DNA of 64,000 bases. Source: Octopus vulgaris. Lineage: Eukaryota. Both the position numbers and the translations under genes were made by a program. Numbering within the stretch: the stretch's first letter is position 1; every line of letters starts with the position of its first letter. The stretch is from the NCBI GenBank assembly GCA_951406725.2, contig OX597814.1:108562001-108626000 (forward strand), read 5' to 3'. The notes under the pieces were generated by a model, which was not told the origin of the DNA, did not search any database, and saw only the letters and a list, made by a program, of their open reading frames with translations. This document shows, piece by piece, positions 1 to 52,775 of the stretch.

Positions 1-11
1 CGAAGAAGATA

Positions 12-1112
12 GTGTCTCGAGACGGGTACAAGATTAAACTAAACCAGATGAAAGAATCTCTCGAAGAGATAGAGAAGAGAACGGTAATATTCAAAACATA
101 CCGTAACATAGAAAGGAAAATAGACTTTTCGTCGGAAAAGGAAGTGGAGGCGTGCCTACTACCCATCTGGGATAAAATCACATTTTTAACCAGGGGTAAG
201 AGGTACGGAACTGTGGAAACTAGGTTCAAGACAGAAGAAGAAGCGAGGGAACATTCAATGAAGCCCCTAAAAACAGGCACAATAACCCTTCTGCCTATCT
301 ATAGAGGAAGGCGTATTTCAAAAGTTACGGTTGCCAACATACCGCCGGAGATCGAGCCCGAACTGATAGTGGCTGGAGTCACTGCAGGACTGGAAGACCA
401 AATGGAAGTGCGTGATGCCACGGTGGTAGAAGCCAAAAAGTGGCATGGACAGAAAGTACAAATTATTGTACAGGCAGAGCAGGCCGCCTTGGAAGAGATA
501 GGCGAGGTCATTGAAATAGGAGAGAGCCGGATGGCAGTAATGGTGGAGGGCCGGAAGCCCAGGTGTTTCACCTGTGGCAAGAAGGGCCACATCAAAAAGG
601 ACTGTAAGCCGGCGGAGAAGGAAAAAAGCGTACCCACAAAACCAAGTGCTCAAGTGGCGGCTGCAGAGACGACAGCCGCAACAGAAGTAGGGGAGGGGTG
701 GTCACAGGTTGCTGCGACAAAACGAAAGCACAACAACCCCTCCCCGGAGAAAATTATAAGCAAAGAGAAGAGAGAAGTAAAGAAGGCGAAGAAGCCGGAG
801 AGGGAGAACAGGGTGTATGTGGCGATGAATACCGCAAACAGAGAAGTGGTACGCAGAGTGGAGACTCAACACGTCGAGGAGGTGGAGATGGAAGCGAAAG
901 GTGGAGGCTGGAGATGCTACGTGATGGGACTGAAAGGGTTCAACACGTATGCAAACGACTTTAGAAAAGACGTAGGCACACCCAGAATGAGCAAGGAGGA
1001 TGCCCTGAAGGACGCAGAAAGAAAGAACAACAACAACGCGCCGAGTCCACGTTCATCTGAGGCAGAAGAGACGGGTCCCCCCCGCCGGCCGGACCCAGAG
1101 GAAATAAGGTAG
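12..1112 (+). CDS. Element A ORF1, gag-like nucleic-acid-binding protein with CCHC knuckle (N-terminus probably upstream of the window)
   Basis: VEGRKPRCFTCGKKGHIKKDC (CX2CX4HX4C); the frame is open back to the window start; homologous to the other ORF1s in the array. Confidence 0.88.
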   Translation: MSRDGYKIKLNQMKESLEEIEKRTVIFKTYRNIERKIDFSSEKEVEACLLPIWDKITFLTRGKRYGTVETRFKTEEEAREHSMKPLKTGTITLLPIYRGRRISKVTVANIPPEIEPELIVAGVTAGLEDQMEVRDATVVEAKKWHGQKVQIIVQAEQAALEEIGEVIEIGESRMAVMVEGRKPRCFTCGKKGHIKKDCKPAEKEKSVPTKPSAQVAAAETTAATEVGEGWSQVAATKRKHNNPSPEKIISKEKREVKKAKKPERENRVYVAMNTANREVVRRVETQHVEEVEMEAKGGGWRCYVMGLKGFNTYANDFRKDVGTPRMSKEDALKDAERKNNNNAPSPRSSEAEETGPPRRPDPEEIR

Positions 1113-1119
1113 GCAAACT

Positions 1120-4100
1120 ATGGCTGTTTACGTTGGATGCATAAATGTGCGCGTCCTGGTAGCGAACTGGAAACAAGGTCGTTTTCTAAACGATATCAGG
1201 GCGCGGAACTTAAATGTAATTGTCGCTACTGAGACACGAATCGAAGGGCCAAGAGATCTACTCCCGCTCATGGAAGGCTACGAGAAATTTATTTCTCCTG
1301 GACGGCATGTGGGCGGGAGTGGGGTGTTGGTTCTGCTTAAAAAAGATAGTGTCGCAGAGAAAAAGTTGATTTTTTCTGATTCAGAAGGTAGGCTGGTCGT
1401 CTTAGATCTGACGTTCAGTTGTGGTAAAGAAATCAGGCTGGTGGCGGTGTATGCACCTAATACGGGTCAGACTGATTTTTATCGAGGCTTGGAGAAGTTT
1501 CTTGGCACGTCGAAATCCATAGTCATGTTAGGGGACTTTAATGCCATATTCGACGCGCGCGTCGATGGCATTGGCTCGAAAGATAGGAAACCAAACACTG
1601 GCTTCCGGGATCTACTGAGTCACTTTCAGCTGGTAGATCCCTACAGACTTGAATTCCCGAACGCTCCACAGTGGACGTGGCTAAGTGGCGACGGGTCTAT
1701 CGGGTCTTACATAGACAGAATTTTTATTAGAAAAATAGATAAAGGATTAGTTAAGTGTCCACAGTTTCACACGGTCAGTTACAGCGATCACAGGATGGTC
1801 ACTGGCGAACTGAACCTAGATAAGTTAGGTAGTAGGGGATCCGGCTACTGGAAACTCAATAAGTCCCTCCTGGCTATGGAGGAGTACAGAAAGCGGATCG
1901 AGTTAGTAGTGAAGAGGGCGTTAACCGGTTCCATTATTAACAACAAATGGTGGTACGCCCTCAAAAGAGCCATAAAATACGAGTCCGTTAGATACAGCAT
2001 AGGTCTAGCAACTAGCGGGCGTAAGAAAGAGATGGGGCTAGTTAAGGCCTTAGAGGAAGCCATGAGAGCTGGCGATGGGGCCCAGGTTAGGCTGAAGAGA
2101 CTGGAGTTGAACCAGCACCTCGAAGCCCAACATATGGGTTGTATCGTCAGAGCTAGAATTCGCGCAATGGGGTGCGAGGGTATCAGGGCTGCCGGATGGG
2201 CACGAGTTGTGGAGGCTCAACGTGGAAACGATTCCACAATTAAGTCTGTGACGAATGGGCGAGGTGATGTGATCACCGAACCAGAGGAGATGTGTCGGAC
2301 GTTTCAGGAGCACTTCGCTCGGCTCTTTGGGGGCGACGGCGGACCGGAGGAGAGGGTGGACCTAACGGACATCCTCGCCGGGCTGCCGCGCCTCTCGGGG
2401 CAGGATGCGGAGAGCTGTGAAGCGTTGATCTCGCCTGAGGAGATAGCTGAGGTCCTGGCCGACTGCGGTGAAAGCAAGGCGCCGGGGATCGATGGTTTAC
2501 CTTACGAACTATATAAAAGAATGCCAGACTTGTTCGGGAACGTGCTGGCCGGCGTTTTCACGAACTGGCGGCAGAATGGGTTCATTCCCAGATCTGTACG
2601 TCGGGGAGTGGTGACGCTGATCAGAAAGGACCCGAGCAAGGGGGATAACATAGACAATTTTCGGCCCATCACTCTGCTAAATACAGAGGTGAAGATTTTG
2701 GCCAAGGTGTTAGCGAAAAGGTTGACGCGTGTCGCGGGTGGTCTGATCGGGAAGGCACAAACTTGTGCGGTCCCAGGAAGAACCATCCAGGACAATCTTC
2801 ACCTAGTACGCTACACAATAGAGAGGTTTGGGAATGACTCTGGCAAGGGTGGGGCATTGGTCCATTTAGACCAGAGTAAAGCGTTTGATAGGGTGAACCA
2901 TCGGTACCTGGTGTCCGTGCTGGCGCAGTTCGGTCTGGGCATTGGCTTCCTCAGGTGGATCATACAATTGTACGATAACATCGACTCGATCGTTCGGGTG
3001 AATGGCTTCCTCTCGAGGCCGTTCCGCATCAAACAGTCTGTTCGTCAAGGGTGTCCGCTCTCCCCGATTTTGTATGTGATGGCTCTTGAGCCATTGCTGC
3101 GAAAGCTGAGCGCCATCCCGATGAATCCAGGAGGTGGAGGATCTGTGACATCGTATGCGGACGACATCACCATCATCGTGACCGAGGTGGAACTCCTGCG
3201 TAGTGTGGGAGATGCCATCAAGGCTTACGAGACGGTGACAGGAGCAAAGATTAACCGGGAAAAATCGGTCGGCTTGCAACTCGGCACCTGGAGGGGCAAG
3301 TCGATGCCTTCGAATAGCATCGTGGGATGCTGGACGGAGGGCCCGGTTAAGCTGCTAGGGATCTGGTTTGGTCCAGGTCTCCAGATAGAAAAGAACTGGT
3401 CTGAGGTGTCGGGCAAGGTGGCTCACGCGGTCGGGACTTGGTCCGGACGGTGGCTGTCCTTGAAAGGGAGGGCGGAGGTGGCCAATGTGTTTTTAGCATC
3501 GGTCATCACCTACCGCCTGACCGCCGTCCCTTGTCCGGATTCGTGGTTGAGCAAGTTGGAGAGACAGATCTTCCACTTTTTGTGGAAGGGAAGTGTTCCT
3601 CTTGTAAGACGTTCTATCTGCTGTCAGAAACCGTTAAAGGGTGGCTTGGGGATGCCTTGGCTGATGATGCGCAGAGATGCGCTGAGGTTAAGGCACCTTT
3701 GGCTCTACCTGGATGGTGAACGGGTGTGGTCCCCGCTTGCGAAGCAGATGTTCCCCAGCTTTGTCAGTTTCGGTGGCAGAGAAACCTGGTTTCGTCGCAA
3801 ACTTAGATCGAGCATGTGGTATTCGGAGTGCCATAAGGCACTCTGCCACTTCCGCAAGTCGGGCAATGCCGGCGGCTTTGGTACCACCGCAGCTTTTTAT
3901 AGCAGGTTGGTAGAGGCCGGAAATGACGATGCCTTGGGAAGGACCTTGGGCCTCGATAGAAATCAGTTGGACAGCCTGTTCCGAAGGACGTTCGGGCCGA
4001 AGACATTGGATAACTTCCAGAAGTCTTTGACCTGGCAATGTTTCAGAGGAGCTTTACCCGTTCGGGATAAACTCACAAGGCATGGTTGGAGTGGACCATC

Positions 4101-4506
4101 GAACTGCCCAAGATGCGAGCGGGATCTGGAAACAGTCTCGCACGCTATTGTTCAGTGTCCGAAAGTCTCGGACGTGTGGGTATATGTCGAACACCTGTTG
4201 TCGGACGGAAGAAGAGTACAGCTATCGGCTGAGACAATTATAAAAATTGACTCGCCTAGCTTTTTGACAAGTGAAGGTAAGCATTGCTTTCTCAGTACAG
4301 TAGCAGTAGCGAAAGAGTGTATATGGAAGACTAGAATGAAAGCGGTAAAGACAGGCACCGTGATCTCTGGCTCCGCCTTGGTGACCTATTTCAGGTTCCA
4401 CCTAAAAAGAAAGGTGGAGTTGGAGAAGAGGTGTCTGTCTGCGTGTGAGTTCGATAAAATATGGAAGCGTGTGACACGGTTGCTGCGAGTGAGAGGAGCC
4501 ACGTAA
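1120..4506 (+). CDS. Element A ORF2: apurinic-like endonuclease + reverse transcriptase + C-terminal zinc finger
   Basis: APE motifs CINVR, ATET, AVYAP, LGDFN, IDRIF, SDH; GSGYWKLN; RT motifs KAPGIDG, FRPITLLN, DQSKAFDRV, QGCPLSP, YADD; CPRC..ETVSHAIVQC; uninterrupted. Confidence 0.95.
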   Translation: MAVYVGCINVRVLVANWKQGRFLNDIRARNLNVIVATETRIEGPRDLLPLMEGYEKFISPGRHVGGSGVLVLLKKDSVAEKKLIFSDSEGRLVVLDLTFSCGKEIRLVAVYAPNTGQTDFYRGLEKFLGTSKSIVMLGDFNAIFDARVDGIGSKDRKPNTGFRDLLSHFQLVDPYRLEFPNAPQWTWLSGDGSIGSYIDRIFIRKIDKGLVKCPQFHTVSYSDHRMVTGELNLDKLGSRGSGYWKLNKSLLAMEEYRKRIELVVKRALTGSIINNKWWYALKRAIKYESVRYSIGLATSGRKKEMGLVKALEEAMRAGDGAQVRLKRLELNQHLEAQHMGCIVRARIRAMGCEGIRAAGWARVVEAQRGNDSTIKSVTNGRGDVITEPEEMCRTFQEHFARLFGGDGGPEERVDLTDILAGLPRLSGQDAESCEALISPEEIAEVLADCGESKAPGIDGLPYELYKRMPDLFGNVLAGVFTNWRQNGFIPRSVRRGVVTLIRKDPSKGDNIDNFRPITLLNTEVKILAKVLAKRLTRVAGGLIGKAQTCAVPGRTIQDNLHLVRYTIERFGNDSGKGGALVHLDQSKAFDRVNHRYLVSVLAQFGLGIGFLRWIIQLYDNIDSIVRVNGFLSRPFRIKQSVRQGCPLSPILYVMALEPLLRKLSAIPMNPGGGGSVTSYADDITIIVTEVELLRSVGDAIKAYETVTGAKINREKSVGLQLGTWRGKSMPSNSIVGCWTEGPVKLLGIWFGPGLQIEKNWSEVSGKVAHAVGTWSGRWLSLKGRAEVANVFLASVITYRLTAVPCPDSWLSKLERQIFHFLWKGSVPLVRRSICCQKPLKGGLGMPWLMMRRDALRLRHLWLYLDGERVWSPLAKQMFPSFVSFGGRETWFRRKLRSSMWYSECHKALCHFRKSGNAGGFGTTAAFYSRLVEAGNDDALGRTLGLDRNQLDSLFRRTFGPKTLDNFQKSLTWQCFRGALPVRDKLTRHGWSGPSNCPRCERDLETVSHAIVQCPKVSDVWVYVEHLLSDGRRVQLSAETIIKIDSPSFLTSEGKHCFLSTVAVAKECIWKTRMKAVKTGTVISGSALVTYFRFHLKRKVELEKRCLSACEFDKIWKRVTRLLRVRGAT

Positions 4507-4759
4507 ACATGCTGTAGGTTGGCTGCCGAGTTTCGGTGGGAATAGCAGGGCTCGTGGGGTCGGCAATCCTGGTGTTCCCGCTTCATGTGTTACCTTTATG
4601 TTGTGTTGTTGTTGTATATCATTCGATTTATCCGATTTTTTGTAATTTAAAAAAAAAAAAAAAAAGTTCATTTTTCTGTAAATACCATATGTGTCTCATG
4701 ACCCCAAATCATGATGTATTGTCCCATTCTTCGTTGGCCCCTTGTGGGTAATAAAGAAA

Positions 4760-6413
4760 TCGCGTTTTTTTTGCGCTCTGTAAAATTCGGTAAAAAGAAA
4801 AAAGAACAAAAAGTGAATGGTTGTTGGTGTAAAATTTTGAACATAGTTAATGCGGTTTCGCGTCTCACTGGTTCTGCGCGTTACACTTTTTCGGTTCGGG
4901 AGGCCGTTTTTCGGTCTGAGGCGACTATGAGCCGCCTCCATCAAGCGGAGGAGATGGAAGGGAGAATTTACTCTGAAATTTCGACGGAAGTATCGACATC
5001 TGAGGAGGAGTTGGCGGTGAAAAAGATGGAAGGCACCTACGCAGGTGTAACGAAGAAGTCAACGGAAAGAGAGATAGACCTGGCTAAGTTGGCGGGCCTC
5101 CAGGAGTTTGTGAAGGAGGACGAGAACGGTGAAGTTGAGCTGCTGCCTCCAGTAGGGCGCGGAGACTGGTTCCATCGTAGAACCATTAAATATAAAGTAT
5201 TTATGAATGGAGGTAGAAAGATGGAAGTAATTAACATGGAAGCAATTGAAGAGGCTCTCAAACAGACAGGAGAAGAAATTGTGTACATGACAAAAGGATT
5301 ACAATATGGAACCATAACGGTGCAATTTAAAAGTGAAAAGCAGCCAGGAATGTAGCAGCCAAGGTGGTGAGTACAGAAAAGATTTACTTGTTACCCTCGT
5401 ATCTGAATAGGCGGGACAACCAGAATTAGGGTGGAGGAATACCTCCACACCTAGAGGGCGAATTAATAACGGCTGCGGTTATAAAAGGAAATGAAGATAA
5501 AGTGGACATCCTCCACGCCATTATGAAATATGAAGGCGTGAGAGGTGCCACACTAGTTATGAACATTCAGCGGAGGCGGATGTTATAGAGAGGATTACGG
5601 ACAGTATAAAAACTGGAAATATTATTATGAGAGTGTGGGTGGAGGGTAGGGCGCCCAGGTGCTACAAGTGTGGCCAAAGGGGTCACATAAGAGCCTACTG
5701 CCCTCCCCCACCAAAGGAAAAAGAAAAGGAAAGCGTTGAGGAAGCCTCAGGAGAGGAAGAAAATAAACAGAAACAAACAGAGAAGGAAACGACAGAAGAA
5801 GAGGAGATGCAACAAGAGTGGAAAGAAGGGGGAACAAAGAGAAAAAGAAGGAAAAAGAAAAACTGTGCGAAGCCCCAACCCACCCCGACACCACCCATAC
5901 CCTTGGAGTCCCATCCTTCCCCTGCAAACAGTGATTCCACCCACTCCCCGCCTACAAGAAAAACAAAAACAGACACACAGAGCAAAGAAAGTCCCAAGAC
6001 CCATTTTTTATGTGTTATACATGGGAAAGACATACAAAACGTTAAAAAACGGGTGTTAACCAAGTGGTACGAACACGAAGATTGTAGCTACACGGCTGTG
6101 GATAGTGATGATACGGGTATATTGGCGAGAAGGTTTGAGGAAGAGGGTGTGTGTTGGAGGTCAGTGGAAATGAAAGATGAATGGATAGAGATGGCTAAAA
6201 GAAAAACGAATGTTGTGATAGGAAAAAAAGGAATACTAATTGGAAATGGGTGAAGAAGGACAGACAAGTGATGCTGGCGGATGGGGCCGTCGGTATCACT
6301 CTCATATATCATTTTCATATTCCATTTTGCTCATATATATGTAATTGTGATGTTCTATGTCCCCAATGTTTGTAACGTCCCCTCTATGTAGCCCCTAGTG
6401 GGTAATAAAGAAA
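4760..6413 (+). mobile_element. Element B: ORF1-only non-autonomous Tx1-like element
   Basis: Starts TCGCGTTTTTTTTGCGCTCTG like C; ORF1 homology only; ends GTCCCCTCTATGTAGCCCCTAGTGGGTAATAAAGAAA ~150 bp after ORF1. Confidence 0.85.
4927..6271 (+). pseudogene. Element B ORF1, split by several frameshifts (decay or assembly indels)
   Basis: Pieces 4927-5355 (TYAGVTKK, TKGLQYGTITVQFKSE) and 5627-6253 (VEGRAPRCYKCGQRGHIRAYC) are collinear with the C ORF1. Confidence 0.8.
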
Positions 6414-6431
6414 GAATGTAGAGAAAAAAGG

Positions 6432-8091
6432 TCGCGTTTTTTTGCGCTCTGTAAGATTCGGTAAAAAAGAACAAGGGGCGTTGTTGTTGTTGTGGAAATT
6501 CTGAACGGCGTTGACGCGGTTTCGCGTTTCGCTCGTTCAGCGCGTTACACTTTTTCTGTTTTGGCGGCCGTTCTCGGTCTGTCAGACAGAAGGAAATGGA
6601 CAACCCCAACCTGATGGGAGATACGGCTGCAGTTTTTGAGTCTTTAACAGACTTGTCTACGTCTGAGGAGGAGCTAGAAATAGCAGTGAGGAAAATGGAT
6701 CAGAAGCTGGGTTATACCTATGCCGGTGTAACCAAGAAGGCGGAAGAGAAAGGGGTCGACATGACCAAGTTGCCAAGTTACCAGAAATACATGAAAAAGG
6801 AAAGCGGTGAGGTGGAACTATCACCGACACCCAGGAGAAAAGAATGGTATGATAAGAGGACCATTGTTTACAGGGTGTTCGCAAACGAAAGGAAGAGGGT
6901 AGAAGTTGTAACCATGGAATGGATAGAGGAAGCCCTGCGAAGAACTGAGGAGGAAATAAATTTTCTGACTCGAGGATCCAAGTACGGTACCGTAGTTGTG
7001 CATTTCAAAACTGAGTCTGCAGCGAGGAAGATGGCGGCGAAGCCGGTGAAGTCAGAAAAGGTAACCCTATTACCTACGTATTTAAACAGGAAGATTACAC
7101 GAATAAGGGTGGAGGGAGTGCCACCAAACGTGGAGGCAGAATGGATTGTGGCGGCTGTGATCAGCGGCCACGAGGACGAAGTGGATATTCTCCATGCCTC
7201 GGTTAAGTCCGAGGGCTGGAGAGGCGTAACAGTGGAGCTGAACGTACAGGCAGAGACCGAGGTACTGGTGGACCTGACGGAAAGCATCAGACTGGGAGAC
7301 GTGGTCATGAGAGTGTGGGTGGAGGGCAGGGCTCCACGTTGTTACAAGTGTGGCCTGAGGGGTCACATAAGAGCCTTCTGCCCTCCCCCAGGGAAAGAAA
7401 TGGATTCCGAACCAGAGAGAGAGAAGCAGAAACCAGAGGAGAAGGAAACAAAGGAAGAGAATACACAGAAATGGAAGGAAGCTGGAAGTAAGAGGAAGAG
7501 AAGAATATGTGGAAAAAAAGAAAATAATATGGAACTCCAATCTACCCCAAAACCTCCCACACCCTCTGAGTCTCACCCTATCCATGCAGACATTGAACCC
7601 ACCCGCTCCCCCCCCAACAAGAAAACAAAAGAAAAAAAGAATACACACACACAAGAGATTGAAATCGAACCCAGGCCGTACATTTGTACTATGACTGAAC
7701 AGAAAGAAGTTAAAAGTCTAATGGAAGAGTATAAATGGTATGATGTTGGAGAGACTAGGTATGCTGTGATTGAAAAGAAGAACATAGGTGAGTTTATGGG
7801 GGGAGGTGAAAGATATAAGAATGAGCGATGAATTCGTGGAAAATATGAATGAGTATTTCGGAGTAAGAATGGATATGGAATTTATTCGTATTGGCAAAGA
7901 ACATTCAAGTGACTATGAAAAACAAAGGACAGGTAAGTGATGCTGACGGACGGGGCCGTTGGTATCGCTTTCATTTTATCATTTTTTTCGTTTAACAATT
8001 CATTTTCATAAAGTTTAATTATAATGTTCTATGTCCCCATGTTTTGTTATGTCCGCCATTCTTCGTAGCCCCTTAGTGGGTAATAAAGAAA
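6432..8091 (+). mobile_element. Element C: ORF1-only non-autonomous Tx1-like element
   Basis: 5' ~130 bp similar to B; single ORF1; ends GCCCCTTAGTGGGTAATAAAGAAA; no ORF2 sequence. Confidence 0.87.
6596..7831 (+). CDS. Element C ORF1 (411 aa; probably extends to TGA at 7940 if one G-run indel near 7800 is corrected)
   Basis: TRGSKYGTVVVHF, LLPTYLNRK, VEGRAPRCYKCGLRGHIRAFC; the alternative frame after the G run is open to ...RTGK*. Confidence 0.85.
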   Translation: MDNPNLMGDTAAVFESLTDLSTSEEELEIAVRKMDQKLGYTYAGVTKKAEEKGVDMTKLPSYQKYMKKESGEVELSPTPRRKEWYDKRTIVYRVFANERKRVEVVTMEWIEEALRRTEEEINFLTRGSKYGTVVVHFKTESAARKMAAKPVKSEKVTLLPTYLNRKITRIRVEGVPPNVEAEWIVAAVISGHEDEVDILHASVKSEGWRGVTVELNVQAETEVLVDLTESIRLGDVVMRVWVEGRAPRCYKCGLRGHIRAFCPPPGKEMDSEPEREKQKPEEKETKEENTQKWKEAGSKRKRRICGKKENNMELQSTPKPPTPSESHPIHADIEPTRSPPNKKTKEKKNTHTQEIEIEPRPYICTMTEQKEVKSLMEEYKWYDVGETRYAVIEKKNIGEFMGGGERYKNER

Positions 8092-8115
8092 TCAGATTTG
8101 AACATCTGGAGGAAA

Positions 8116-9885
8116 TCTATTTGCGTGTTGTTATCTGTGATTAGACGTTGAAATTTTGTTGTGTAAAGTGATTAATATCGCGCGAGGCGTTTGCCTCCAC
8201 GTGTGGAAACCTTCCGAAGAAGGTGAATTGACCCTCTAGTCATGGCGACTTACGCGGGGGTCACGGGAAAGAAAAATAATGATTCGTCGATAATCGTGAA
8301 GGATGTTTTCTTTGAGAAGAGTAAACTCAAAGAATATGAAAAGCTATTCAAAAGGGAGGGTGATAGCGTGAAGCTAATCCCCCCCGCGAAAGCAAAAGAG
8401 GACAAAGAAAACAAGACTGTAACATATAGAACACAAGACAAAAATACAAAGAAACTGGCAAGAGTGGAGATAGCAGAAATCGAAAAATGTCTGGGAGACA
8501 TAATGGGGAAATCGACCTACGTGAGTAGAGGCAAGAAATTTGGTACGGTGGAGGTGAGATGTGCAACGGAAGAAATTGCAGCCTCACTGGCTACCACTGT
8601 ACTAAGAGCGGAAACATTTATAATGTGGCCCTCATACAAGGGAAGAAGAGGGGTCCGGGTTAAAATCCCGAATATACCCCCAGAAGTAAAAACAGAATGG
8701 CTGGCAACAGCTATTCTAGGAGCAGCAGAAGAGGAAGTGGAGGTGGAATCCTTTAAGGAGTCCAACGCGATAAACTGGAGAGGATATGGGGTAGAACTGT
8801 GTTTGATGGCCACAAAAGAGGACATTGAAAGGTTCCCCTACAGAATAGAAATTGAAGATGAGAAAACCCTCAGTGTAATTGTAGAGGGAAGAAAGCCAAA
8901 CTGCTACTTGTGCGGGACAAGGGGGCACATTAAAAAAGAGTGCCCGTTATACGAATTCGTAGCGGAGTGCGAGCAGGAACTCGAAGAAAAGAAGAACACG
9001 GTAAATGAAAAAGAAAACATAGAAAAGGAAACAAAACAACAAGAGAAAGGAAATAATAAGTCAATGAAGGAAAAAGAAATAAAAGAAAAGAAAGAAATAG
9101 AACCAAAACAGAGTCAGGAAAAAAAAAGGAAAAAGAAACAACAGGAAAAAAACAAGAGAGAGATCAGAATCAAACGAAAAGAAAAGACGGCACACAAAAA
9201 GAAAAAGAAAAGGAACATAAAACACGAGAGAAAGAGAGAACAGACAAAGAACCAAAAAGACAAGAGAAGGAAGAGAAAGAAAAGAAGGCAAAAAGAGAGA
9301 AAGAGAGAAACAAAGAGAGGAGAACAAGGAAGAAATAAGCCCGAAAAGAAAAATGAAGGGAAAACGTAGGACGGAAACAAGATTACTGCTTCTACAAGTT
9401 AGTAACCTTCCATTTCTGCCCTGAAATGAAGAATTGACAAGTAATACGGAGGGACATGTGTGGGTCAACAGGATGACCGATCAGTGGCAGGAGACTGCTC
9501 TAATCCCCGAAGAAAGAGTCGCTGAGTTCCTCAGAGCTGCCGGTGAGAGTGTAACATTTTACACGAGTGTTCGAGTGAGAGAGCGGCTGCCTGAGGGCTC
9601 AGTGATAGACTTTAGAGAATTGAAAACTATCATGGAATATGTATAGAACTGTGAGAAGAGAGAGAAGAAAGAAGAGAAAAAAAAAAATATTGTGAAATAT
9701 ATGTGACGAAAATGTAACCTCTCGATTCCGGGGATCGAGTGGGCATTTACATCTCATTGTAAATATTCTTTCATATGTCATTTTTTACTTTTATTTTTTC
9801 CTTTTCTTGTCATTCGCTTTCTTATTTTAAGTTCCCCGATTGTATTGTCCCCTCTATGTTCGCCCCTTGTGGGTAATAATAAAAT
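8116..9885 (+). mobile_element. Element D: ORF1-only non-autonomous Tx1-like element with target-site duplication
   Basis: Flanked by CATCTGGAGGAAA at 8103-8115 and 9886-9898; ends GTCCCCTCTATGTTCGCCCCTTGTGGGTAATAATAAAA. Confidence 0.88.
8242..9369 (+). CDS. Element D ORF1 (C-terminus probably frameshifted in the A-rich tract; may continue to ~9646)
   Basis: MATYAGVT, SRGKKFGTVEVR, PSYKGRR, PNIPPE, VEGRKPNCYLCGTRGHIKKEC. Confidence 0.83.
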   Translation: MATYAGVTGKKNNDSSIIVKDVFFEKSKLKEYEKLFKREGDSVKLIPPAKAKEDKENKTVTYRTQDKNTKKLARVEIAEIEKCLGDIMGKSTYVSRGKKFGTVEVRCATEEIAASLATTVLRAETFIMWPSYKGRRGVRVKIPNIPPEVKTEWLATAILGAAEEEVEVESFKESNAINWRGYGVELCLMATKEDIERFPYRIEIEDEKTLSVIVEGRKPNCYLCGTRGHIKKECPLYEFVAECEQELEEKKNTVNEKENIEKETKQQEKGNNKSMKEKEIKEKKEIEPKQSQEKKRKKKQQEKNKREIRIKRKEKTAHKKKKKRNIKHERKREQTKNQKDKRRKRKKRRQKERKRETKRGEQGRNKPEKKNEGKT

Positions 9886-10108
9886 CATCTGGAGGAAATC
9901 AATTTTTTGCGTGTATAGTAAGTTATTATATTGTGTATATTTTCTCCATTGTGATCTACTGTGTGTCTAGCTGTCTTTCTGTGTTGTTGTAAAACTATTG
10001 AAGTCGGCCTTCGTGCGAGGGCTTCGTGTTGGTGTTTCCCCCTCCGTGGGGGAAAAAACTATCATTATCTTGGGTGTGCCAAGGGCTTGTTAAAGCCAGT
10101 TATCGGAG

Positions 10109-11104
10109 ATGGAATCCCCCATCTCGTATTCTCCTGTGACAAGTGATGCAGGATCACCGGCGGTGTCGCCAAAGAAAAAAGAGGCGGGGTCGCCAAAGGA
10201 AAAAGATATTCCAGCACCAGCGAGAAAATTTTCGGAAGTAGCTGGGAAGAAAATTAAAAAAATTAACGTGGACAACCTGGGAAAACATGCGGACTGTGTG
10301 TCAAAAGAGGGCACGGAAGTAACCGTGGCTTCAAACGCCCAAATACAGGAGGAAATTTCGAATAGGAGAATAATCTATAAGACATTCAGTATAACAAGCA
10401 GAGCAATACAAAAAATAGAGGAGAAAAAGATCGAAAACTGCTTAAAGCCGATAATGGATAAAATTACATATATCAATCGAGGGAAGAAATACGGCACAGT
10501 GGAGGTGAGATTCACATCAGAGGAGGTAGCGAAGAAGCTATCCATGGAACCCATAAAAGCGGAGGATATTGTTCTCCTACCCCTGTATAAAGGCAAGAGA
10601 ACTTCCAAGATCACAATGAACAACATTCCGCCAGAAGCGGATGCCGAAGTCCTGGTGGCAGCAGTTATGGTAGGCCTGGAGGAAAAAATAAACATCCTCC
10701 AGGCCACCGTAGAAGAAGAAGAATTCTGGAAAGGGCAAAAAATAATAATAGCCATACAAGCAGAAGTACAAACCCTGGAAGAGATCCCAGAGACTCTAAG
10801 GATAAGCGAAGATGAAAGAGTCACAGTCTTCGTAGAGGGCAGAAAGCCGAGGTGCTTCGGCTGCGGTAAGAAAGGGCATGTAAGGGCAGAATGCCAGCCC
10901 CAACCCAAACCGCAGGAAGCAGCTCAGCCAAGTGGAAAAGAAGAAGCCGTGTCATCAGAAACAGCGCTGGTCGGCCCAGGAGGGTCGACTGAAGGTGTGG
11001 AGGTGACAGAGGCAGCGGAACCAACGGAGGAGGAAAAAAAGAGCGAGGAAACGAAAAAGGAGGAGGGGTGGTCAAAAATCACTAGAAAAAAAAAGAAAAA
11101 CTGA
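10109..11104 (+). CDS. Element E ORF1 (true end probably near 11430; frameshifts in A runs)
   Basis: NRGKKYGTVEVRF, LLPLYKGKR, NIPPE, VEGRKPRCFGCGKKGHVRAEC; closest to the A ORF1. Confidence 0.85.
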   Translation: MESPISYSPVTSDAGSPAVSPKKKEAGSPKEKDIPAPARKFSEVAGKKIKKINVDNLGKHADCVSKEGTEVTVASNAQIQEEISNRRIIYKTFSITSRAIQKIEEKKIENCLKPIMDKITYINRGKKYGTVEVRFTSEEVAKKLSMEPIKAEDIVLLPLYKGKRTSKITMNNIPPEADAEVLVAAVMVGLEEKINILQATVEEEEFWKGQKIIIAIQAEVQTLEEIPETLRISEDERVTVFVEGRKPRCFGCGKKGHVRAECQPQPKPQEAAQPSGKEEAVSSETALVGPGGSTEGVEVTEAAEPTEEEKKSEETKKEEGWSKITRKKKKN

Positions 11105-11434
11105 AACCACCCCTCCCAAAGTAAACCAAAAAAAAAAAAAGGAGTCATTGAACTCATTTATGGCCGTTAAGGCCACGAACAATAGACTCGGAAATGTGTT
11201 GGTAGCGATGGCCAAAGTAGAAAAAATAGGAGGAAAAACGACTATGTTTTGTACAGAATAGGCCGGAAGGATTACGGACGGATAAAGTCCGAATTTTTCC
11301 ATGACGTAGGCCCGCTCAGAATGGATATAACATCTCCATATATATTCGAGGGCCTGCGTCAGACTCCCCCACGAGGCCCAGAAAAAGAGAAGGAAGAAGA
11401 AGAAAAAACCGAACCACTGATATAAAGGTAAGTA

Positions 11435-14400
11435 ATGGATTACATTTATGTTGGTTGTTTGAATGTGCGCGGCCTAGGGAGCAGGCTGGAAGCAAGGTCG
11501 CTTCCTGCATGATATCAGGTCGCGTAATTTAGATGTTATTGTTGCTACAGAAACCCGGTTAGAGGGGCCAAGAGGTCTACTCCCGCTGTTTGACGGCTAC
11601 GAGAGTTTTTTCTCTCCTGGCAGTCCTACAGGCGGGAGTGGGGTGTTGGTCCTATTAAAAAGAAACCGGGTTTCTGAGAAAAAGTTAATTTTTGCAGATC
11701 CAGAAGGTAGGCTGGTCGTCATGGATTTGACGTTCAGTAATGGTAAAGTTATCAGACTGGTTGCAATTTACGCACCCAACCATACAGGGCAAAGTGATTA
11801 TTTTCGTGAACTAGAAAACTTTCTTGGTACTTCGCATTCATTAGTGGTGCTAGGAGACTTTAACACAATTTGCAAAGCGGATGTAGATTATGTTGGCTCG
11901 TGTCCAGATAGAAAAGGCAACAGTGGCTTCATGGAACTGCTAAGCCGCTTTGAGCTAGCAGATCCTTATAGGCTGGAATTTCCGAACGCTCCATTGTGGA
12001 CATGGTCAAACAGCGACGGATCTTCCAGGTCATATTTAGATAGAATACTAATTAGAAAAGTAGACAGTAAAATAGCTAAGTGTCCACAGTTTTACCCGAT
12101 CAGCTACAGTGATCATAAAATGGTCACTTGTAAGCTTGACATAGATAAGGTTAAAAATAGAGGATCCGGTTACTGGAAACTTAATACGTCCCTTTTGGCG
12201 ATTAAGGAGTACAAAGACCGGATTAGGAATATAATTCAGAGGGCACTATCTGGTACCATCATTAATAACAAATGGTGGTACGCCCTCAAACGAGCCATCA
12301 AGTTTGAGTCTATTAGATATAGCATAGGAGTAGTGGCTAGAGAGGCTAGAAGGGAAACTACTCTAGTTAAGGAATTAGAGGAAGCCATGAAAACTGGCTC
12401 TGCGGCTCAGGTGGCGTCCAAGAGACTGGTGTTAAACCAGCACCTCGAGGCCAAACACATGGGCTGCATTGTCAGGGCTAGAATCCGTCATATGGGATGT
12501 GAAGGAATCAACGCCGTGAGATGGGCCCGAGTGGTGGAAGCTCAGCATGGTAACGATGCCACGATTCGATCTTTGACGAACCAACAAGGTGAGTTGATAA
12601 ACGAACCCGAGGAGATGTGTGAGGCCTTTCAGGAGCACTTCGCTCAGCTTTTCGGTGAGTGCGGCGGACTGGATAGGAGGAGGGCCTTTACGGACCTACT
12701 CGACGGTCTGCCGCGCTTATCGGGGCGAGATGCGGAGGGCTGTGAAGGGCCAATCACGCCTGAGGAGGTGGTTGAGGCAATGGCGGACTGCGGCGCGGGC
12801 AAGGCGCCGGGTTTGGATGGTCTACCCTATGAGTTATATAAGAGTATGCCAGACTTGTTCGGGCACCTACTGGCGGAGGTCTACGCGAACTGGCAGCAGA
12901 ACGGGCTTATACCCAGATCTGTGCGCCGGGGAGTAGTGACTCTCGTCAGAAAGGACCCGAGCAAGGGGGAGTGCATTGATAATTTCAGGCCCATCACTCT
13001 GCTAAACACAGAGTTGAAGATTTTGGCCAAAGTGTTATCGAAAAGATTGGCGCGTGTCGCGGATGGTCTGATCGGAGGGGCACAGACATGTGCCGTTCCG
13101 GGCAGATCCATTCAGGATAATCTCCATCTAATGCGGTACACTATAGAGGGGTTTAATAGTGATTCTGGCAAGGGTGGGGCACTGGTCCATTTAGACCAAT
13201 CTAAAGCTTTTGATAGGGTCGACCATCGTTACCTGGTATCTGCCCTGGCACAGTTCGGGCTGAGCCTTGGCTTCCTCAGGTGGATTATCCAAATTTATGA
13301 TAACATCGACTCGGTAGTTCGGGTGAACGGCTTCTTGTCGAAGCCGTTCAAAATCAAACGCTCGGTTCGTCAAGGGTGTCCGCTCTCCCCGCTTTTGTAC
13401 GTGATGGCTCTTGAGCCATTACTGCGAAAACTGAGCGGCATCCCGAGACAGCCAGGTAACGGAAAATCAGTGTCAGCGTACGCGGATGACATCACCATCA
13501 TCGTAACCGAAATGGACCACCTATGTAAAGTAGGCAAGGCCATAGAGGTTTACGAGACGGTGACAGGAGCAAAAGTTAATCGCGAAAAGTCAGTCGGCTT
13601 GCAACTCGGCACCTGGAGAGGCAAGTCGATGCCTCCTGACAGCGTCGTGGGACGTTGGACGGAGGGTCCGATTAAACTGCTAGGGGTCTGGTTCGGTCCA
13701 GACCTCCAAATAGAGAAGAATTGGGGCGAGGTAACGAGCAAGGTGGCTGCAGTAGCCAAGACCTGGTCTTGGCGGTGGCTATCCCTGAAAGGGAGGGCGG
13801 AGGTGGCCAATGTGTTTATCACATCGGTTATCACCTACCGCCTTTCCGTCGTTCCTTGCCCTGATTCGTGGTTGATCAAGTTGGAAAGACAGCTCTTCTA
13901 CTTCTTGTGGAAGGGCGGGAAACCACTTGTGAAACGCTCTACTTGCTGTCAACAACCGTTAAAGGGTGGGCTAGGGATGCCTTGGCTGATGATGCGCAGA
14001 CATGCGCTGAGGTTAAGACATCTGTGGCTCTACCTGGATGGTGAACGGGTGTGGTCTTCGCTAGCAAAACTGATGTTTCCCAAGTTCACTAGTTTCGGTG
14101 GATGGGAAACCTGGCTGAATCGTAGATCGAAACTTGGTACTTGGTACACGGAGTGTCGCAAGGCTCTCCTGCTATTCCGTCGCTCGGGCAACGCCTGCGG
14201 TGGGGGTTCCACCACATTCTTCTATAGAGGGTTGGTAGAGGCGGAATGTGAAGATACCTTGGGGGAAACCCTAGGTCTCGACGATAATCAGCTGGCCAGT
14301 CTGTTCCGACGTACGTTCAAGCCGAGGACACTGGACAACTTCCAGAAGTCTCTGGCATGGCAATGCTACAGAGGAGCTCTACCTGTTCGGGATAAACTCG

Positions 14401-14831
14401 CAAGGCACGGTGGCCAAGACAGTCCGATATGTCCAAGATGCGGGCGGGATAGGGAAACCGTCCCGCACGCTATTGTTCATTGTCCGGACGTGTCTGAGGT
14501 GTGGGTTTATGCCGAACAGCTGTTGTCAGGTACACGAAGAGTACAGCTGTCGACTGAGTCGATTACAAAAATTGACCCACCGGATTTCCTCGTGAATGAA
14601 GGTAAGTTTCGTTTTCTCGTTGTAGTAGCAATTGCGAAAGAAGTGATATGGAAGACGAGAATGAAAGGTTTACAGTCAGGCAAGTTCATCTCCGGCCCTG
14701 GTTTGATGAATTACTTCATCTTTCACCTGAAAAGGAAGATAGGGCTGGAGAGAATATGCCTGACTAGGAGAGTGTATGAAGAACGATGGAAGGATGTAGC
14801 ACGAAAGTTGCGAATGAAAGTTACAACATAA
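11435..14831 (+). CDS. Element E ORF2 (APE-RT-zf); one apparent frameshift near 11480
   Basis: ATG at 11435 gives MDYIYVGCLNVRGL, matching A's MAVYVGCINVR; a shifted frame gives WKQGRFLHDIR and joins the 1062-aa ORF containing GDFN, SDH, QGCPLSP, YADD. Confidence 0.9.
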
Positions 14832-15076
14832 ATGTAATACCAAGTGCAACCAAAAGTATCAGTGGGGAGGCGGGGCTCGTGGGGTCCGAGCTGAACCCGC
14901 ACCCACTCCATCTGTAATGTCTTCCGGTCTATTCCATCATTCGATTTTGTGTGTATTCTTGTAATTTCATGATATTTTTAAATCCGATTTTTGTGTAAAA
15001 ACCATCCGTATGTCTGACCCCAAATCAGATTGTTTTGTCCCCTCTATGTTTGCCCCTTGTGGGTAGTAATAAAACA

Positions 15077-15400
15077 ATCTGGAGGAAAGCACCATCGAGA
15101 AGTGTCTTGGTGCGACTATGAAAGATATCTAACCAGAGGCGGTAAATTCGCCACAATAGAAGCAAGGTTCGAGTCAACGGAGCGTGCAAGGGAGTACTCG
15201 ACTCGAACTTGCAAAGTGGAAATATTTTATTTTTACCTTTATATCTGGGACGTAGGACGTCCCGGAAAAAAATTTTAATGCCCCCCCACCCCGAAGTAGA
15301 GGTAGGTTGGATTGTAGCCACACTTCTATACAAGAGGGAGGACAAGATACAATTGATCGAAATTACAAGAGACGGGCTAACAATTCCAGTCTGTGAATAA
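15077..15400 (+). pseudogene. Decayed ORF1 remnant of an older related element; insertion target of D and E
   Basis: LEESTIEKCLGATM, YLTRGGKFATIEARFES, LFLPLYLGRRTSR, PEVEVGWIVA all match ORF1 blocks of A-E, with frameshifts. Confidence 0.8.
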
Positions 15401-15462
15401 AATAATATTGCACAATTCCAGCAAAATTCCAGTTTCTTTTGCGCAATCTTCGTGTATATATA

Positions 15463-16500
15463 CACTGGCCAAAATAAGTTTAAATTAGAAATTTACGGCA
15501 CTAATGAGCAATGAACAAAAATTTATTATTAGTATTGAGCTCCGTAGCCATTATTTTCAATTAGGGCCTTACAACGGCGGGACATGGAGTTCGACAAATG
15601 AGCAAAAAATCACTTGGAATGTTCTGCCATATTTCTTCAATAAAATTATATAATTGGGACAAATTTGCTGGTTTTTTAGCATGAACTCTTTTAGAAAAAT
15701 AATTCCATAAATTTTCTATCGGATTCAAATCCGGTCTCTGCGGAGGCCACTCAATAACCACCATATTATTACGCTCAGAATATTTCAAAACTTACCTAGC
15801 CATATGAACGGGGCAATTGCCCTACTGGAAAACAGATCCCATGGCATCTGATCATTTAAATATGGCAGCACATTTTCATTTATTAATTGCAGGTAGCCTA
15901 CACTGTTTGGTCTGCCATCAACTGAACCAACACCTAAGCTGCTGAGCGCGGGCCACACCATTAACACCCTCCCCCCCACACACACGCCACCTGCTTGCGC
16001 CGTTTTCTTGACACGTTTAGGATAGAATTCTTCAGTTGGACGGCGTCTAACATAAATCATTCCGTCTGATCCAAAGATGCAGAAGCAGGATTCGTTGCTC
16101 CAAAGAACTTTTGGCCAGTCTTCAGCCGTCCATTCCATATGGCTTTTAGCAAACTTGATCCGCTTCCACCGGTTCGTCTCAAAATTATCGGCTTCCTTCG
16201 AGCGATCCAACCGAACAGTTCAAATTCTTTTAAGCGGTTTCTGACAGTTTATGATGTAAAGCTTATGCCAGTTTCATCAGATAATTGCTTGCAAATGTCC
16301 ACTGCTGTTAGCATTCGGTTACCTTCAGAGAGCCTACGAATTCGCCAATCCATCAGTACAGTTTTTTTTTTGTCAGAGTGCCCGTTCTTTGCCAATCTTT
16401 GTATTGGCCAGTGGCTTGGTAAAGCTTCAATGCTTGAACACAAACCGTTTTGCTGCATCATAATTGCTTGTTAATATTCATGAAGGGCACATATTGCTGA
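15463..16500 (-). mobile_element. Decayed Tc1/mariner transposase
   Basis: FAKSHMEWTAEDWPKVLWSNESCF and WPPQRPDLNPIENLW, frameshifted; TA-CACTGGCC at 15461 resembles a Tc1 end; the other TIR was not found. Confidence 0.85.
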
Positions 16501-16879
16501 TGAAGCAACACGATCTTTGATCTAGTAACTGGGCAGAAACTACAATGCTTTCCCATAGCGAATTAATGTGTAACAATGGTAGATTATTAAACAAAACAGT
16601 GCAGTACGACCAGCCATATGACCACTCAAGAGTAAAAAAGAGAGACAGGCAGACGGAGAGAAAAAAGGAAAATGCCCCTTGCATTTGAAAACTATGGAAA
16701 TATATTTTTTAAAAAATTTCATTTAATTTTTCCCCAATTTAATTGTTTTGCATGCTTTACTCTAAGTTGAAAAAGTCGCAAAGTCTGAAACCGGTACTAA
16801 AATGTTCTTCATAATAAAATTATTTTAGCATTTTCTACCTTGTCCTATTTTCCTTATACATATCAACTCGTGTGTCACT

Positions 16880-41517: not shown

Positions 41518-43241
41518 ATCAAACGCTCGGTTCGTCAAGGGTGTCCGCTCTCCCCGCTTTTGTACGTGATGGCTCTTGAGCCATTACTGCGAAAACTGAG
41601 CGGCATCCCGAGACAGCCAAGTAATGGAAAATCAGTGTCAGCGTACGCGGATGACATCACCATCATCGTAACCGAAATGGACCACCTATGTAAAGTAGGC
41701 AAGGCCATAGAGGTTTACGAGACGGTGACAGGAGCAAAAGTTAATCGCGAAAAGTCAGTCGGCTTGCAACTCGGCACCTGGAGAGGCAAGTCGATGCCTC
41801 CTGACAGCGTCGTGGGACGTTGGACGGAGGGTCCGATTAAACTGCTAGGGGTCTGGTTCGGTCCAGACCTCCAAATAGAGAAGAATTGGGGCGAGGTAAC
41901 GAGCAAGGTGGCTGCAGTAGCCAAGACCTGGTCTTGGCGGTGGCTATCCCTGAAAGGGAGGGCGGAGGTGGCCAATGTGTTTATCACATCGGTTATCACC
42001 TACCGCCTTTCCGTCGTTCCTTGCCCTGATTCGTGGTTGATCAAGTTGGAAAGACAGCTCTTCTACTTCTTGTGGAAGGGCGGGAAACCACTTGTGAAAC
42101 GCTCTACTTGCTGTCAACAACCGTTAAAGGGTGGGCTAGGGATGCCTTGGCTGATGATGCGCAGACATGCGCTGAGGTTAAGACATCTGTGGCTCTACCT
42201 GGATGGTGAACGGGTGTGGTCTTCGCTAGCAAAACTGATGTTTCCCAAGTTCACTAGTTTCGGTGGATGGGAAACCTGGCTGAATCGTAGATCGAAACTT
42301 GGTACTTGGTACACGGAGTGTCGCAAGGCTCTCCTGCTATTCCGTCGCTCGGGCAACGCCTGCGGTGGGGGTTCCACCACATTCTTCTATAGAGGGTTGG
42401 TAGAGGCGGAATGTGAAGATACCTTGGGGAAACCCTAGGTCTCGACGATAATCAGCTGGCCAGTCTGTTCCGACGTACGTTCAAGCCGAGGACACTGGAC
42501 AACTTCCAGAAGTCTCTGGCATGGCAATGCTACAGAGGAGCTCTACCTGTTCGGGATAAACTCGCAAGGCACGGTGGCCAAGACAGTCCGATATGTCCAA
42601 GATGCGGGCGGGATAGGGAAACCGTCCCGCACGCTATTGTTCATTGTCCGGACGTGTCTGAGGTGTGGGTTTATGCCGAACAGCTGTTGTCAGGTACACG
42701 AAGAGTACAGCTGTCGACTGAGTCGATTACAAAAATTGACCCACCGGATTTCCTCGTGAATGAAGGTAAGTTTCGTTTTCTCGTTGTAGTAGCAATCGCG
42801 AAAGAGGTGATATGGAAGACGAGAATGAAAGGTTTACAGTCAGGCAAGTTCATCTCCGGCCCTGGTTTGATGAATTATTTCATCTTTCACCTGAAAAGGA
42901 AGATAGGGCTGGAGAGAATATGCCTGACTAGGAGAGTGTATGAAGAACGATGGAAGGATGTAGCACGAAAGTTGCGAGTGAAAGATACAACATAAATGTA
43001 ATACCAAGCGCAACCAAAAGTATCAGTGGGGAGGCGGGGCTCGTGGGGTCCGAGCTAAACCCGCACCCACTCCACCCGTAATGTCTTCCGGTCTGTCCCA
43101 TCACTCGATTTCTGTCCATTTATTGTAATTCATGAAAATTTTAAAACCCGATTTATTGTAAAAACCCATTCGTTTGTCTGACCCCATCATCAGATTGTAT
43201 TGTCCCATCTATGTTCGCCCCTTGTGGGTAATAATAAAACA
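41518..43241 (+). mobile_element. 5'-truncated copy of element E with a perfect 16-bp TSD
   Basis: Near-identical to 13353-15076; ACATCAATACACGTAC at 41502-41517 and 43242-43257; one-G deletion near 42427. Confidence 0.95.
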
Positions 43242-52169: not shown

Positions 52170-52775
52170 GTTCTGCACACCCTAGTCCAGTGCCCGAGTA
52201 TTACTGACCTGTGGGTTTATGTCGAACACCTGCTGTCGCGTGTAGGACGGATCTGGCTATCACCTGAATCCATTGTGAAGATTGCACCGCCGTCCTCTTT
52301 TGGCCGGGAGGGGCAGGCAATTTTTATTTGTCTAGTGGCTGTAGCGAAAGGGGTAGTATGGTGGACCCGTTTGAAAGGGCTAAAGACAGACACTTTCCTC
52401 TTTGGTCAAGCCCTCATCAACTTTTTCAAGTTTCACTTGAAAAGGAAGTTGAGGGTGGAGAGATTGAGGTGTTGCCTTGTAGCAAGTTTGTTGAGAGAAT
52501 GGCCAGTATGAAAGGGCCAATTCTGAGCATGCACCTGTAAAAAGGAAATTAAAGAAGAGCTCTTATCCTGCTGATCAGGCACCCGTGGCTTTTGTGGGGT
52601 TTTCCACAAGCACCTTAAAGTGCCTCCTCTATTGGGAGTTTTAATTTAATTTTTATTGTTTTGCTTTGTTTACACAAAGAAAACCCATTGTATCGTCCTG
52701 TTTTTGTCTTTTATGTTGTTGTATGTCATTTAATGTTTTTGTATGTGAAGCCTTGTGGCTAATAAAACAATAAAT
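52170..52775 (+). mobile_element. Older 3' fragment of a related Tx1-like element
   Basis: HTLVQCPSITDLWVYVEHLLS...VAVAKGVVWWTR...FKFHLKRK matches the ORF2 C-terminus of A/E; ends AGCCTTGTGGCTAATAAAACAATAAA. Confidence 0.85.

Follow-up and report, generated by a model that had tools for sequence, protein, structure and literature searches.

Head-to-tail stacks of two-ORF and ORF1-only LINEs at a single position in a non-autonomous Helitron of Octopus vulgaris

How can several different LINEs of one orientation come to lie head to tail with almost no DNA between them, and why do some of them lack ORF2? This question is raised by the beginning of the window, the stretch of 64,000 nucleotides of Octopus vulgaris DNA analysed here, in which five such units (A, B, C, D and E) follow each other on the same strand:

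1..4760, plus strand: unit A, a two-ORF LINE of the L1/Tx1 group; 5' end about 465 bases ahead of the window
ending at 1112, plus strand: ORF1 of unit A, 446 aa from the first Met
1120-4506, plus strand: ORF2 of unit A, 1128 aa, open
4761..6412, plus strand: unit B, ORF1-only family; ORF1 frameshifted in the window copy
6413..6430, plus strand: 18-bp spacer between B and C, a duplicate of the Helitron sequence directly upstream of A, that is, the target duplication of B
6431..8093, plus strand: unit C, ORF1-only family; ORF1 (6596-7831) open
8094..8103, plus strand: 10-base spacer between C and D, leftover Helitron between the site of C (host 530) and the D/E site (host 540)
8104..9886, plus strand: unit D, ORF1-only family; ORF1 8242-9369; a 14-base copy of the landing site at its start
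9887..15076, plus strand: unit E, a two-ORF LINE beginning with the same 14-base site copy as D
from 10109 (ORF1) to 14831 (ORF2), plus strand: ORFs of unit E, frameshifted in the assembly
15077..15394, plus strand: downstream part of the host Helitron (host 540-857), the 3' end of which is missing in the window

The five abutting same-strand units proposed in the first-pass annotation were confirmed, with unit coordinates 1-15076 and spacers of 0, 18, 10 and 0 bases. The domain search and the ORFs also upheld its division into A and E, carrying ORF1 and ORF2, and B, C and D, carrying ORF1 only. The zinc knuckle ascribed to the ORF1s of B, C and D was recovered as a zf-CCHC match, which all five ORF1s have (three of the six ORF1 pieces below the curated Pfam cut-off), and the common 3' motif (family D9) indeed terminates all five units. 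D had been credited with a target duplication of its own; a 15-bp repeat (8103-8117 and 9886-9900) does flank it, but being the landing site as such, this repeat is found behind E too. In the assembly, frameshifts break up ORF1 of B; in E, a stop occurs early in ORF1 and the frame shifts at about 11476. Several of these B and E indels are absent from contigs of public runs and so represent private decay or assembly errors. The segment 15077-15394 was considered as a sixth element and rejected, being the downstream part of the Helitron that has its upstream half immediately in front of A. An Rfam scan of 1-16000 gave two chance matches only (E 0.55 and 0.84) and no ribozyme, and the ORF at 15788-16219 had no match in Pfam.

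ORF2 of both A and E contains the Pfam domains Exo_endo_phos, RVT_1 and zf-RVT, corresponding to an APE endonuclease, a reverse transcriptase and a C-terminal zinc-binding domain. Its best relative of solved structure is LINE-1 ORF2p (E 4e-66), with R2 far behind. ORF1 of these units has a CCHC knuckle and a ZCCHC3-like RNA-binding look-alike, the latter being a lead only, and 5' truncations and variable target duplications are found in the A/E group. Thus, A and E are non-LTR retrotransposons of the L1 group (L1/Tx1). The narrower assignment to Tx1 is our assumption, taken over from the first-pass annotation; no named Tx1 protein was present among the protein-search matches.

B, C and D belong to young multi-copy families, whose full-length copies have their own duplications and a LINE tail. 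As the first-pass annotation expected, they occur genome-wide without ORF2, which is found in none of the 157 mapped units. The mapped ORF1 clusters devoid of any ORF2 are B (59 units), C (52), D (46), H (5) and D2 (4), and in every other mapped ORF1 cluster ORF2 is present throughout; no ORF2 remnant was detected in the 27 tails searched. Calculated on copies with an open core (106 of 157), omega was 0.13-0.20 within B, C and D (pairs with dS of at least 0.05) and 0.11 between D and D2, so that the dN/dS check proposed earlier reveals purifying selection on these ORF1s (omega 0.11-0.20). In the assembly, 33 of the 42 full-length D copies lack an ORF1 open through the knuckle, and the commonest D ORF1 indel was not seen in short-read contigs. 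The ORF1s of B, C and D share 24-45% identity with any two-ORF element found; no closer parent than 45% emerged from 30 of the 150 scored ORF2 loci and the mapped arrays, and the C ORF1 core found no match among 5.8 billion proteins. B, C and D are not local deletions of A or E. They are not tandem duplicates of each other either, as had been claimed, and neighbouring copies are polyphyletic. B, C and D are HAL1-like, ORF1-only non-autonomous LINEs, although HAL1 in the strict sense is an internal deletion of an identifiable parent of the L1 clade.

The causal setting overlooked by the first-pass annotation is that the train lies inside a 1-kb non-autonomous Helitron, with halves of this host flanking the array in the window, the upstream one directly before A, and in the mapped arrays. 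The host is identified by its ends. Among 12 empty copies, the 5' end was found in 10 (A then TC in 9) and the 3' end, a hairpin and CTAG, in 8 (followed by T in 7). Host 540-857 is itself a decayed piece of an ORF1 from the LINE group to which the units belong. The same arrangement around the landing spot exists at over a hundred other places in the genome, exact junctions numbering 113 filled versus 209 empty, with none in reversed controls. By hand count of the first 100 D/E-type 3' ends listed, 78 are followed by the host site or its variant, 17 lie at unrelated sites, and 5 lie in or resemble a second, mariner-like host, for an empty copy of which a pattern search matched only the two filled loci. 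With 78 of 100 ends in one repeat, these elements form a target-specific family as defined in the accessible text of PMC4494074 (a single type of repeat making up over 20% of flanks). Some loci contain 5'-truncated copies and upstream host deletions. The 12-base variants of the junction were considered as locus-private mutations, which was rejected, as they recur across loci.

In our opinion, the train, in which a pair of two-ORF LINEs and members of three ORF1-only families share one Helitron site, was most probably built by repeated separate retrotranspositions, the ORF1-only RNAs likely borrowing ORF2 through the shared 3' tail. An origin mainly by tandem duplication, by transport of cargo with the Helitron or by misassembly is very improbable and has been largely refuted. 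It draws on a 17-unit array at C5:100.95 Mb, where a four-unit pattern repeats, and on a few neighbouring units only 0.2% apart, which indicate local duplication, as well as on the fact that no public contig spans the whole train. Against it, neighbours are polyphyletic: the nearest relative of a D copy is often in another locus (0.17% apart vs 7.9% to the neighbour). The hosts are more divergent than their cargo, since the five closest of 66 D pairs, 0.17-0.57% apart, occupy hosts 2.3-6.1% apart. Composition and truncation points vary by locus, and contigs from other public runs again show these types of junction. Moreover, one D clade stands upstream of the others in all six mixed arrays (from the tree; about 1 in 90,000 by hand). 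The order of families has exceptions, two D/E-to-B joins and one E-to-D join. Because neighbours are often unrelated and ordered by subfamily, trains appear to grow mostly by separate insertions. Since no significant age gradient was found along D arrays (first vs last copy, p = 0.46), we infer the direction of growth. Each insertion would leave the upstream host DNA intact and place a duplicate of 10-20 bases before the new copy, thereby regenerating the landing site, so that the next copy would usually land before the last one. Transcripts may begin within this duplicate or slightly ahead of it and thereby take it along to other locations. At C3:117.25 Mb, an E copy that lies outside the host has about 20 host-like bases at its 5' end. 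Unequal crossing-over would lengthen a train occasionally.

In the stacking scheme, ORF2 of A/E-type elements would recognise the common tail and prime reverse transcription at the site, while the half elements would keep ORF1 because it is needed in cis. Borrowing of ORF2 in trans is likely, the indications, all indirect, being the shared tail and the A>G editing marks. The tail motif has 87,452 matches genome-wide, and those loci that were read proved to be a very abundant SINE; therefore, it does not define a partnership of ORF1-only elements and helpers. Gathering next to helpers as such, suggested in the first-pass annotation, was not borne out: many trains hold no two-ORF element, for example those made up of five D (C1:118.74 Mb), of five C and one B (C1:68.1 Mb) and of five B (C2:158.83 Mb). 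It is the common landing site inside the Helitron that brings helpers and half elements together.

What selects this site may be viewed in several ways. The particle could be drawn to TATA-bound factors or transcription starts, the Helitron being hot through its TATA box, and we regard such tethering to promoters as a serious possibility, though short of probable. An analogy is TRE5-A of Dictyostelium, an L1-group element whose ORF1p, according to the accessible part of PMC5911963, binds TFIIIB (TBP, Brf1 and Bdp1). The TATA box of the host lies 29 and 39 bases upstream of the two main sites, and in a host variant without 533-835 the fixed distance is retained, relatives again being inserted 24 bases past the upstream anchor, which is intact (by inspection). 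In the stacking scheme, upstream host DNA, and not the sequence at the nick, would in part determine where insertion occurs. Of 13 off-host A/B/C insertions whose duplication could be read, 5 have a TATA box beginning at -29 to -31, the background being 2.3-2.6%; these counts were made by eye without a formal test, and the SINE-internal site L186 (TATA at -29) was excluded owing to its ambiguous duplication. On the other hand, no TATA was seen by eye in 13 off-host D/E insertions, the commonest host site is at -39 rather than -30, the window of -32..-28 was picked after the first cases had been seen, and the advance TATA prediction for new B-tail loci held in neither of the two readable ones (8 of 10 were unreadable or inside other repeats). 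The idea that a TATA box directs insertion to a point about 30 bases past it has only partial support. Tethering refines the stacking explanation and does not replace it. Plain sequence-specific targeting, in which ORF2 cuts a preferred Helitron sequence that the duplicate recreates, may be entertained tentatively. Most insertions are at one host base (37 mapped units end at 539-541), off-host targets often start with the same few bases, one E subfamily occupies a site outside the host that agrees with its own leader at 12 of 14 bases (C2:46.86 Mb), and Tx1 provides a precedent in the accessible text of PMC4494074. However, the junction duplicates drift by 3-5 of 12 bases and are still reused, the deleted host variant has other bases after the nick, and B arrays grow at unrelated sites. 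Finally, it is conceivable, though rather unlikely, that these ORF1-only LINEs form a guild of ancient origin, in which the divergent ORF1 proteins would be targeting adaptors tethering borrowed ORF2 to TATA-type Pol II core promoters. Insertion would take place at the start site, the promoter there would serve the elements themselves, and the subfamilies would be left behind in order of time, and the Helitron with its captured ORF1 scrap and TATA box would be a mobile landing pad.

Separate parts of this system are already known, and the following comparisons refer to the accessible portions of the cited papers. Crocodilian Tx1-Mar and SINEU-3 in Mariner-N4_AMi and Xenopus Tx1 in Tx1D (Kojima 2015, PMC4494074) likewise represent a LINE and its dependants favouring one site of a non-autonomous DNA transposon, and their tandem insertions also sandwich a target duplication. 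In contrast, the octopus host is a Helitron with the site in a captured ORF1 remnant, the dependants are protein-coding ORF1-only families (at least five), and the trains mix families and reach 10 or more units. Non-autonomous LINEs with ORF1 include HAL1 (L1), HeT-A (Jockey) and Ag-Sponge (CR1) (PMC5786205, PMC5753468). B, C and D similarly keep only a conserved ORF1 with a LINE 3' tail; unlike those listed, among which no Tx1-derived case is given, they are putatively Tx1-derived, have ORF1s remote from those of two-ORF elements and possess a common landing site. Drosophila telomeric HeT-A/TART/TAHRE arrays are also same-direction, head-to-tail mixtures of ORF1-only and two-ORF elements (PMC5537684), whereas octopus trains are interstitial, occur at many loci, have target duplications and belong to a different LINE clade. 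A telomeric array of the HeT-A/TART type was rejected for our train, which is mid-contig (108.6 Mb into a 225.7-Mb contig). TRE5-A and yeast Ty3 insert at a fixed distance from a promoter-bound factor as well; their association with Pol III genes was tested experimentally, while the octopus link with Pol II TATA boxes is a partial correlation only (PMC5911963). The octopus repeat annotation in the available text of PMC13282606 includes 13 recently active L1-Tx1 families without these features, and the library behind it may contain the present ones. In listings of the open-licence literature, neither ORF1-only Tx1-group families, nor a Helitron target, nor such trains or their combination were found.

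With several families that are long-lived and under selection, these data add one more LINE lineage to those with ORF1-only parasites, and they place mixed arrays resembling HeT-A/TART away from telomeres. The many filled and empty copies of one site, the swapped ORF1 modules and the short shared tail make two open questions testable, namely why non-autonomous LINEs retain ORF1 and which of the two, ORF1 or the endonuclease, is responsible for site choice. The succession of subfamilies may be recorded in ordered trains.

Passage through RNA has left a mark of its own, a sense-strand excess of A>G editing in 11 of 111 B and C copies (4 of 59 B and 7 of 52 C); none was detected in the 46 D copies. 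A>G accounts for up to 92 of 93 differences in the edited copies, in which RNA editing is preserved in DNA.

All five units that the first-pass annotation had assigned to one strand were found, on the plus strand and roughly at the proposed positions, in a train that occupies approximately 1–15076 of the window. The units and the neighbouring features are as follows:

to 4760, plus strand: unit A, a LINE with ORF1 and ORF2
4761–6412, plus strand: unit B, ORF1 only
6431–8093, plus strand: unit C, ORF1 only
8104–9886, plus strand: unit D, ORF1 only
9887–15076, plus strand: unit E, a LINE with ORF1 and ORF2
15077–15394: part of the host repeat, which continues the 5' half found upstream
15395–16600: a decayed element in place of the Helitron's 3' end, presumably Tc1-like; a Pfam scan of it gave no match
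41518–43240: a 5'-truncated copy of E (98%), in no Helitron, with an 18-base duplication
52185–52461: a fragment of an old LINE ORF2, 67% to A

The ORF2 attributed to A and E was borne out, both units encoding an endonuclease, a reverse transcriptase (RT) and zf-RVT, and a CCHC knuckle closes every ORF1 of the train. Among proteins of solved structure, LINE-1 ORF2p is the best match to A's ORF2, and the nearest named relative of the RT is from Argonauta hians (58%); the group is putatively Tx1. As had been proposed, one short tail terminates all five units, and the shared stretch includes 22–85 bases for most unit pairs and 167 for B/C. Frameshifts are present in B and E in this assembly, and several of those indels are absent from public contigs.

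B, C and D, regarded earlier as ORF1-only elements, are multi-copy families. The genome contains 1,463 candidates for D and 634 for B, and those scored (21 and 8, respectively) are mostly full-length and lie in arrays; exact tail patterns gave 131 matches of the A/C type and 38 of the B type. Among the 213 units with ORF1 and tail in the fetched regions, 200 were clustered, and ORF2 was always present in the A and E clusters and never in B (59), C (52), D (46) and two further ORF1-only clusters, H (5) and D2 (4); no ORF2 remnants were found in 27 tails. In the ORF1 core tree, B/C and D/D2/H form branches separate from A/E, their cores being 24–40% identical to other families, with synonymous sites saturated. 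ORF1 accompanies 29 of the 30 ORF2 loci examined, every one closer to A/E, and its best match to any ORF1-only family is 45%.

For pairs with dS of at least 0.05, omega was 0.20 in B, 0.18 in C and 0.13 in D, and 0.11 between D and D2. The ORF1 core is open in 53/59 B, 44/52 C and 9/46 D copies. The breaks in D mostly consist of a single base missing within a C run, and because this loss is not present in four short-read contig sets, the commonest break is probably an assembly error. Some E copies (L035, L038, L045–L046) with 98–99% identical ORF2 differ in their 5' UTR/ORF1 modules; tails are swapped between B and C also.

An excess of sense-strand A>G changes was found in 4/59 B, 7/52 C, 1/22 E and 0/46 D copies, accounting for up to 92 of 93 differences, which shows that such copies went through an RNA stage; ADAR would be the agent behind it. 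In three B arrays outside the Helitron (L134 region, L136–L137, L141–L142), the most upstream full-length copy is A>G hyper-edited. The tail itself has 87,452 matches in the genome, and at all five of these loci that were read (L208–L212) it belongs to a SINE, often in 184-base head-to-tail tandem units, so the tail is the mark of a wider network of dependants.

The host of the train is a non-autonomous Helitron, the 5' half of which lies ~1,130 to 465 bases ahead of the window start (C1:108562001). Empty host copies, ~1 kb long, end like Helitrons: the 3' hairpin with the terminal motif is present in 8/12 of them, and the 5' end in 10/12. One empty sister, located ~13 kb upstream (L032 6460–7642), has the same local landing-site variant. 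The middle of the host (~477–839) is a decayed ORF1 fragment, 28–43% identical to the group's ORF1s, and the landing sites fall within it. Using exact patterns, 209 empty and 113 filled junctions were counted in the genome, with 0 for reversed controls. From a list of 368 D/E-type ends, the first 100 were classified by hand: 68 are followed by the main site or a variant of it, 10 by the corresponding site in a host variant with a deletion, 5 by a second host or a look-alike and 17 by other DNA. This second host, presumably mariner-like, has been hit by units of types A, B, D and E, at several positions within ~70 bases (L122–L125, L147, L165, L193, L194, L201).

Judging from the junctions in the window, E and D would have inserted at host position 540 and C at position 530; B would have landed ahead of C, leaving an 18-base duplicate, and A last, at the 5' end of B. 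B/C are usually upstream of D/E (7 joins versus 2 reversed). The suggestion that ORF1-only units gather beside two-ORF helpers as such was not supported, as many trains contain no helper. Among 42 full-length D copies from 19 loci, adjacent copies are often not closest kin (for example, 0.17% from another locus versus 7.9% from the neighbour), and the hosts of close pairs are more divergent than the copies, which argues against hitch-hiking. One D clade is upstream of the others in 6/6 mixed arrays, two boundary copies are mosaics, and no age gradient was detectable along the D arrays (p = 0.46). At C1:93.3 and C1:133.8 Mb, the leading copies of the array are truncated and accompanied by deletions of upstream host sequence. 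Full copies precede truncated ones at C1:64.2 Mb and L167; thus, insertion in front of a resident can proceed without the resident's own 5' end.

The 12-base junction copy differs by several bases, yet is reused, and its variants recur across different loci, so it is likely a leader sequence of the RNAs themselves. An E copy outside the Helitron has ~20 host-like bases, and the host variant with the deletion is nicked at an unchanged 24 bases behind the upstream anchor. Insertion may be directed by promoter tethering, since a TATA box is located 29 and 39 bases upstream of the two main host sites and, by eye, starts at −29 to −31 in 5/13 off-host A/B/C sites against a background of 2.3–2.6%. 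However, the same position was occupied in 0/13 D/E sites (by eye, same background), and a forecast made for new loci failed at both readable ones (0/2). In our opinion, these results leave tethering as a tentative lead, next to a slightly less likely one, a weak preference of the endonuclease.

The train system is real, and the kinds that it varies are already known. Earlier work describes ORF1-only members of the L1, Jockey and CR1 clades of LINEs (PMC5786205; PMC5753468), Tx1 families that insert into DNA transposons and whose dependants, arranged in tandem, enclose a duplication (PMC4494074), mixed head-to-tail arrays at fly telomeres (PMC5537684) and factor-tethered targeting by TRE5-A and Ty3 (PMC5911963). 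No description of the combination was found in the open-licence literature searched.

At C5:100.95 Mb (L196–L199), outside any Helitron, a B/C array of 17 units repeats with a period of four units, which points to local duplication; GC-box-like and E-box-like motifs and no TATA were noted upstream of it. A segment of a C copy is inverted within a train at L102 (C1:74.68 Mb), and minimal insertions, with ~22 tail bases only and 16–20 base duplications, are present at L129, L131, L132, L153 and L160.
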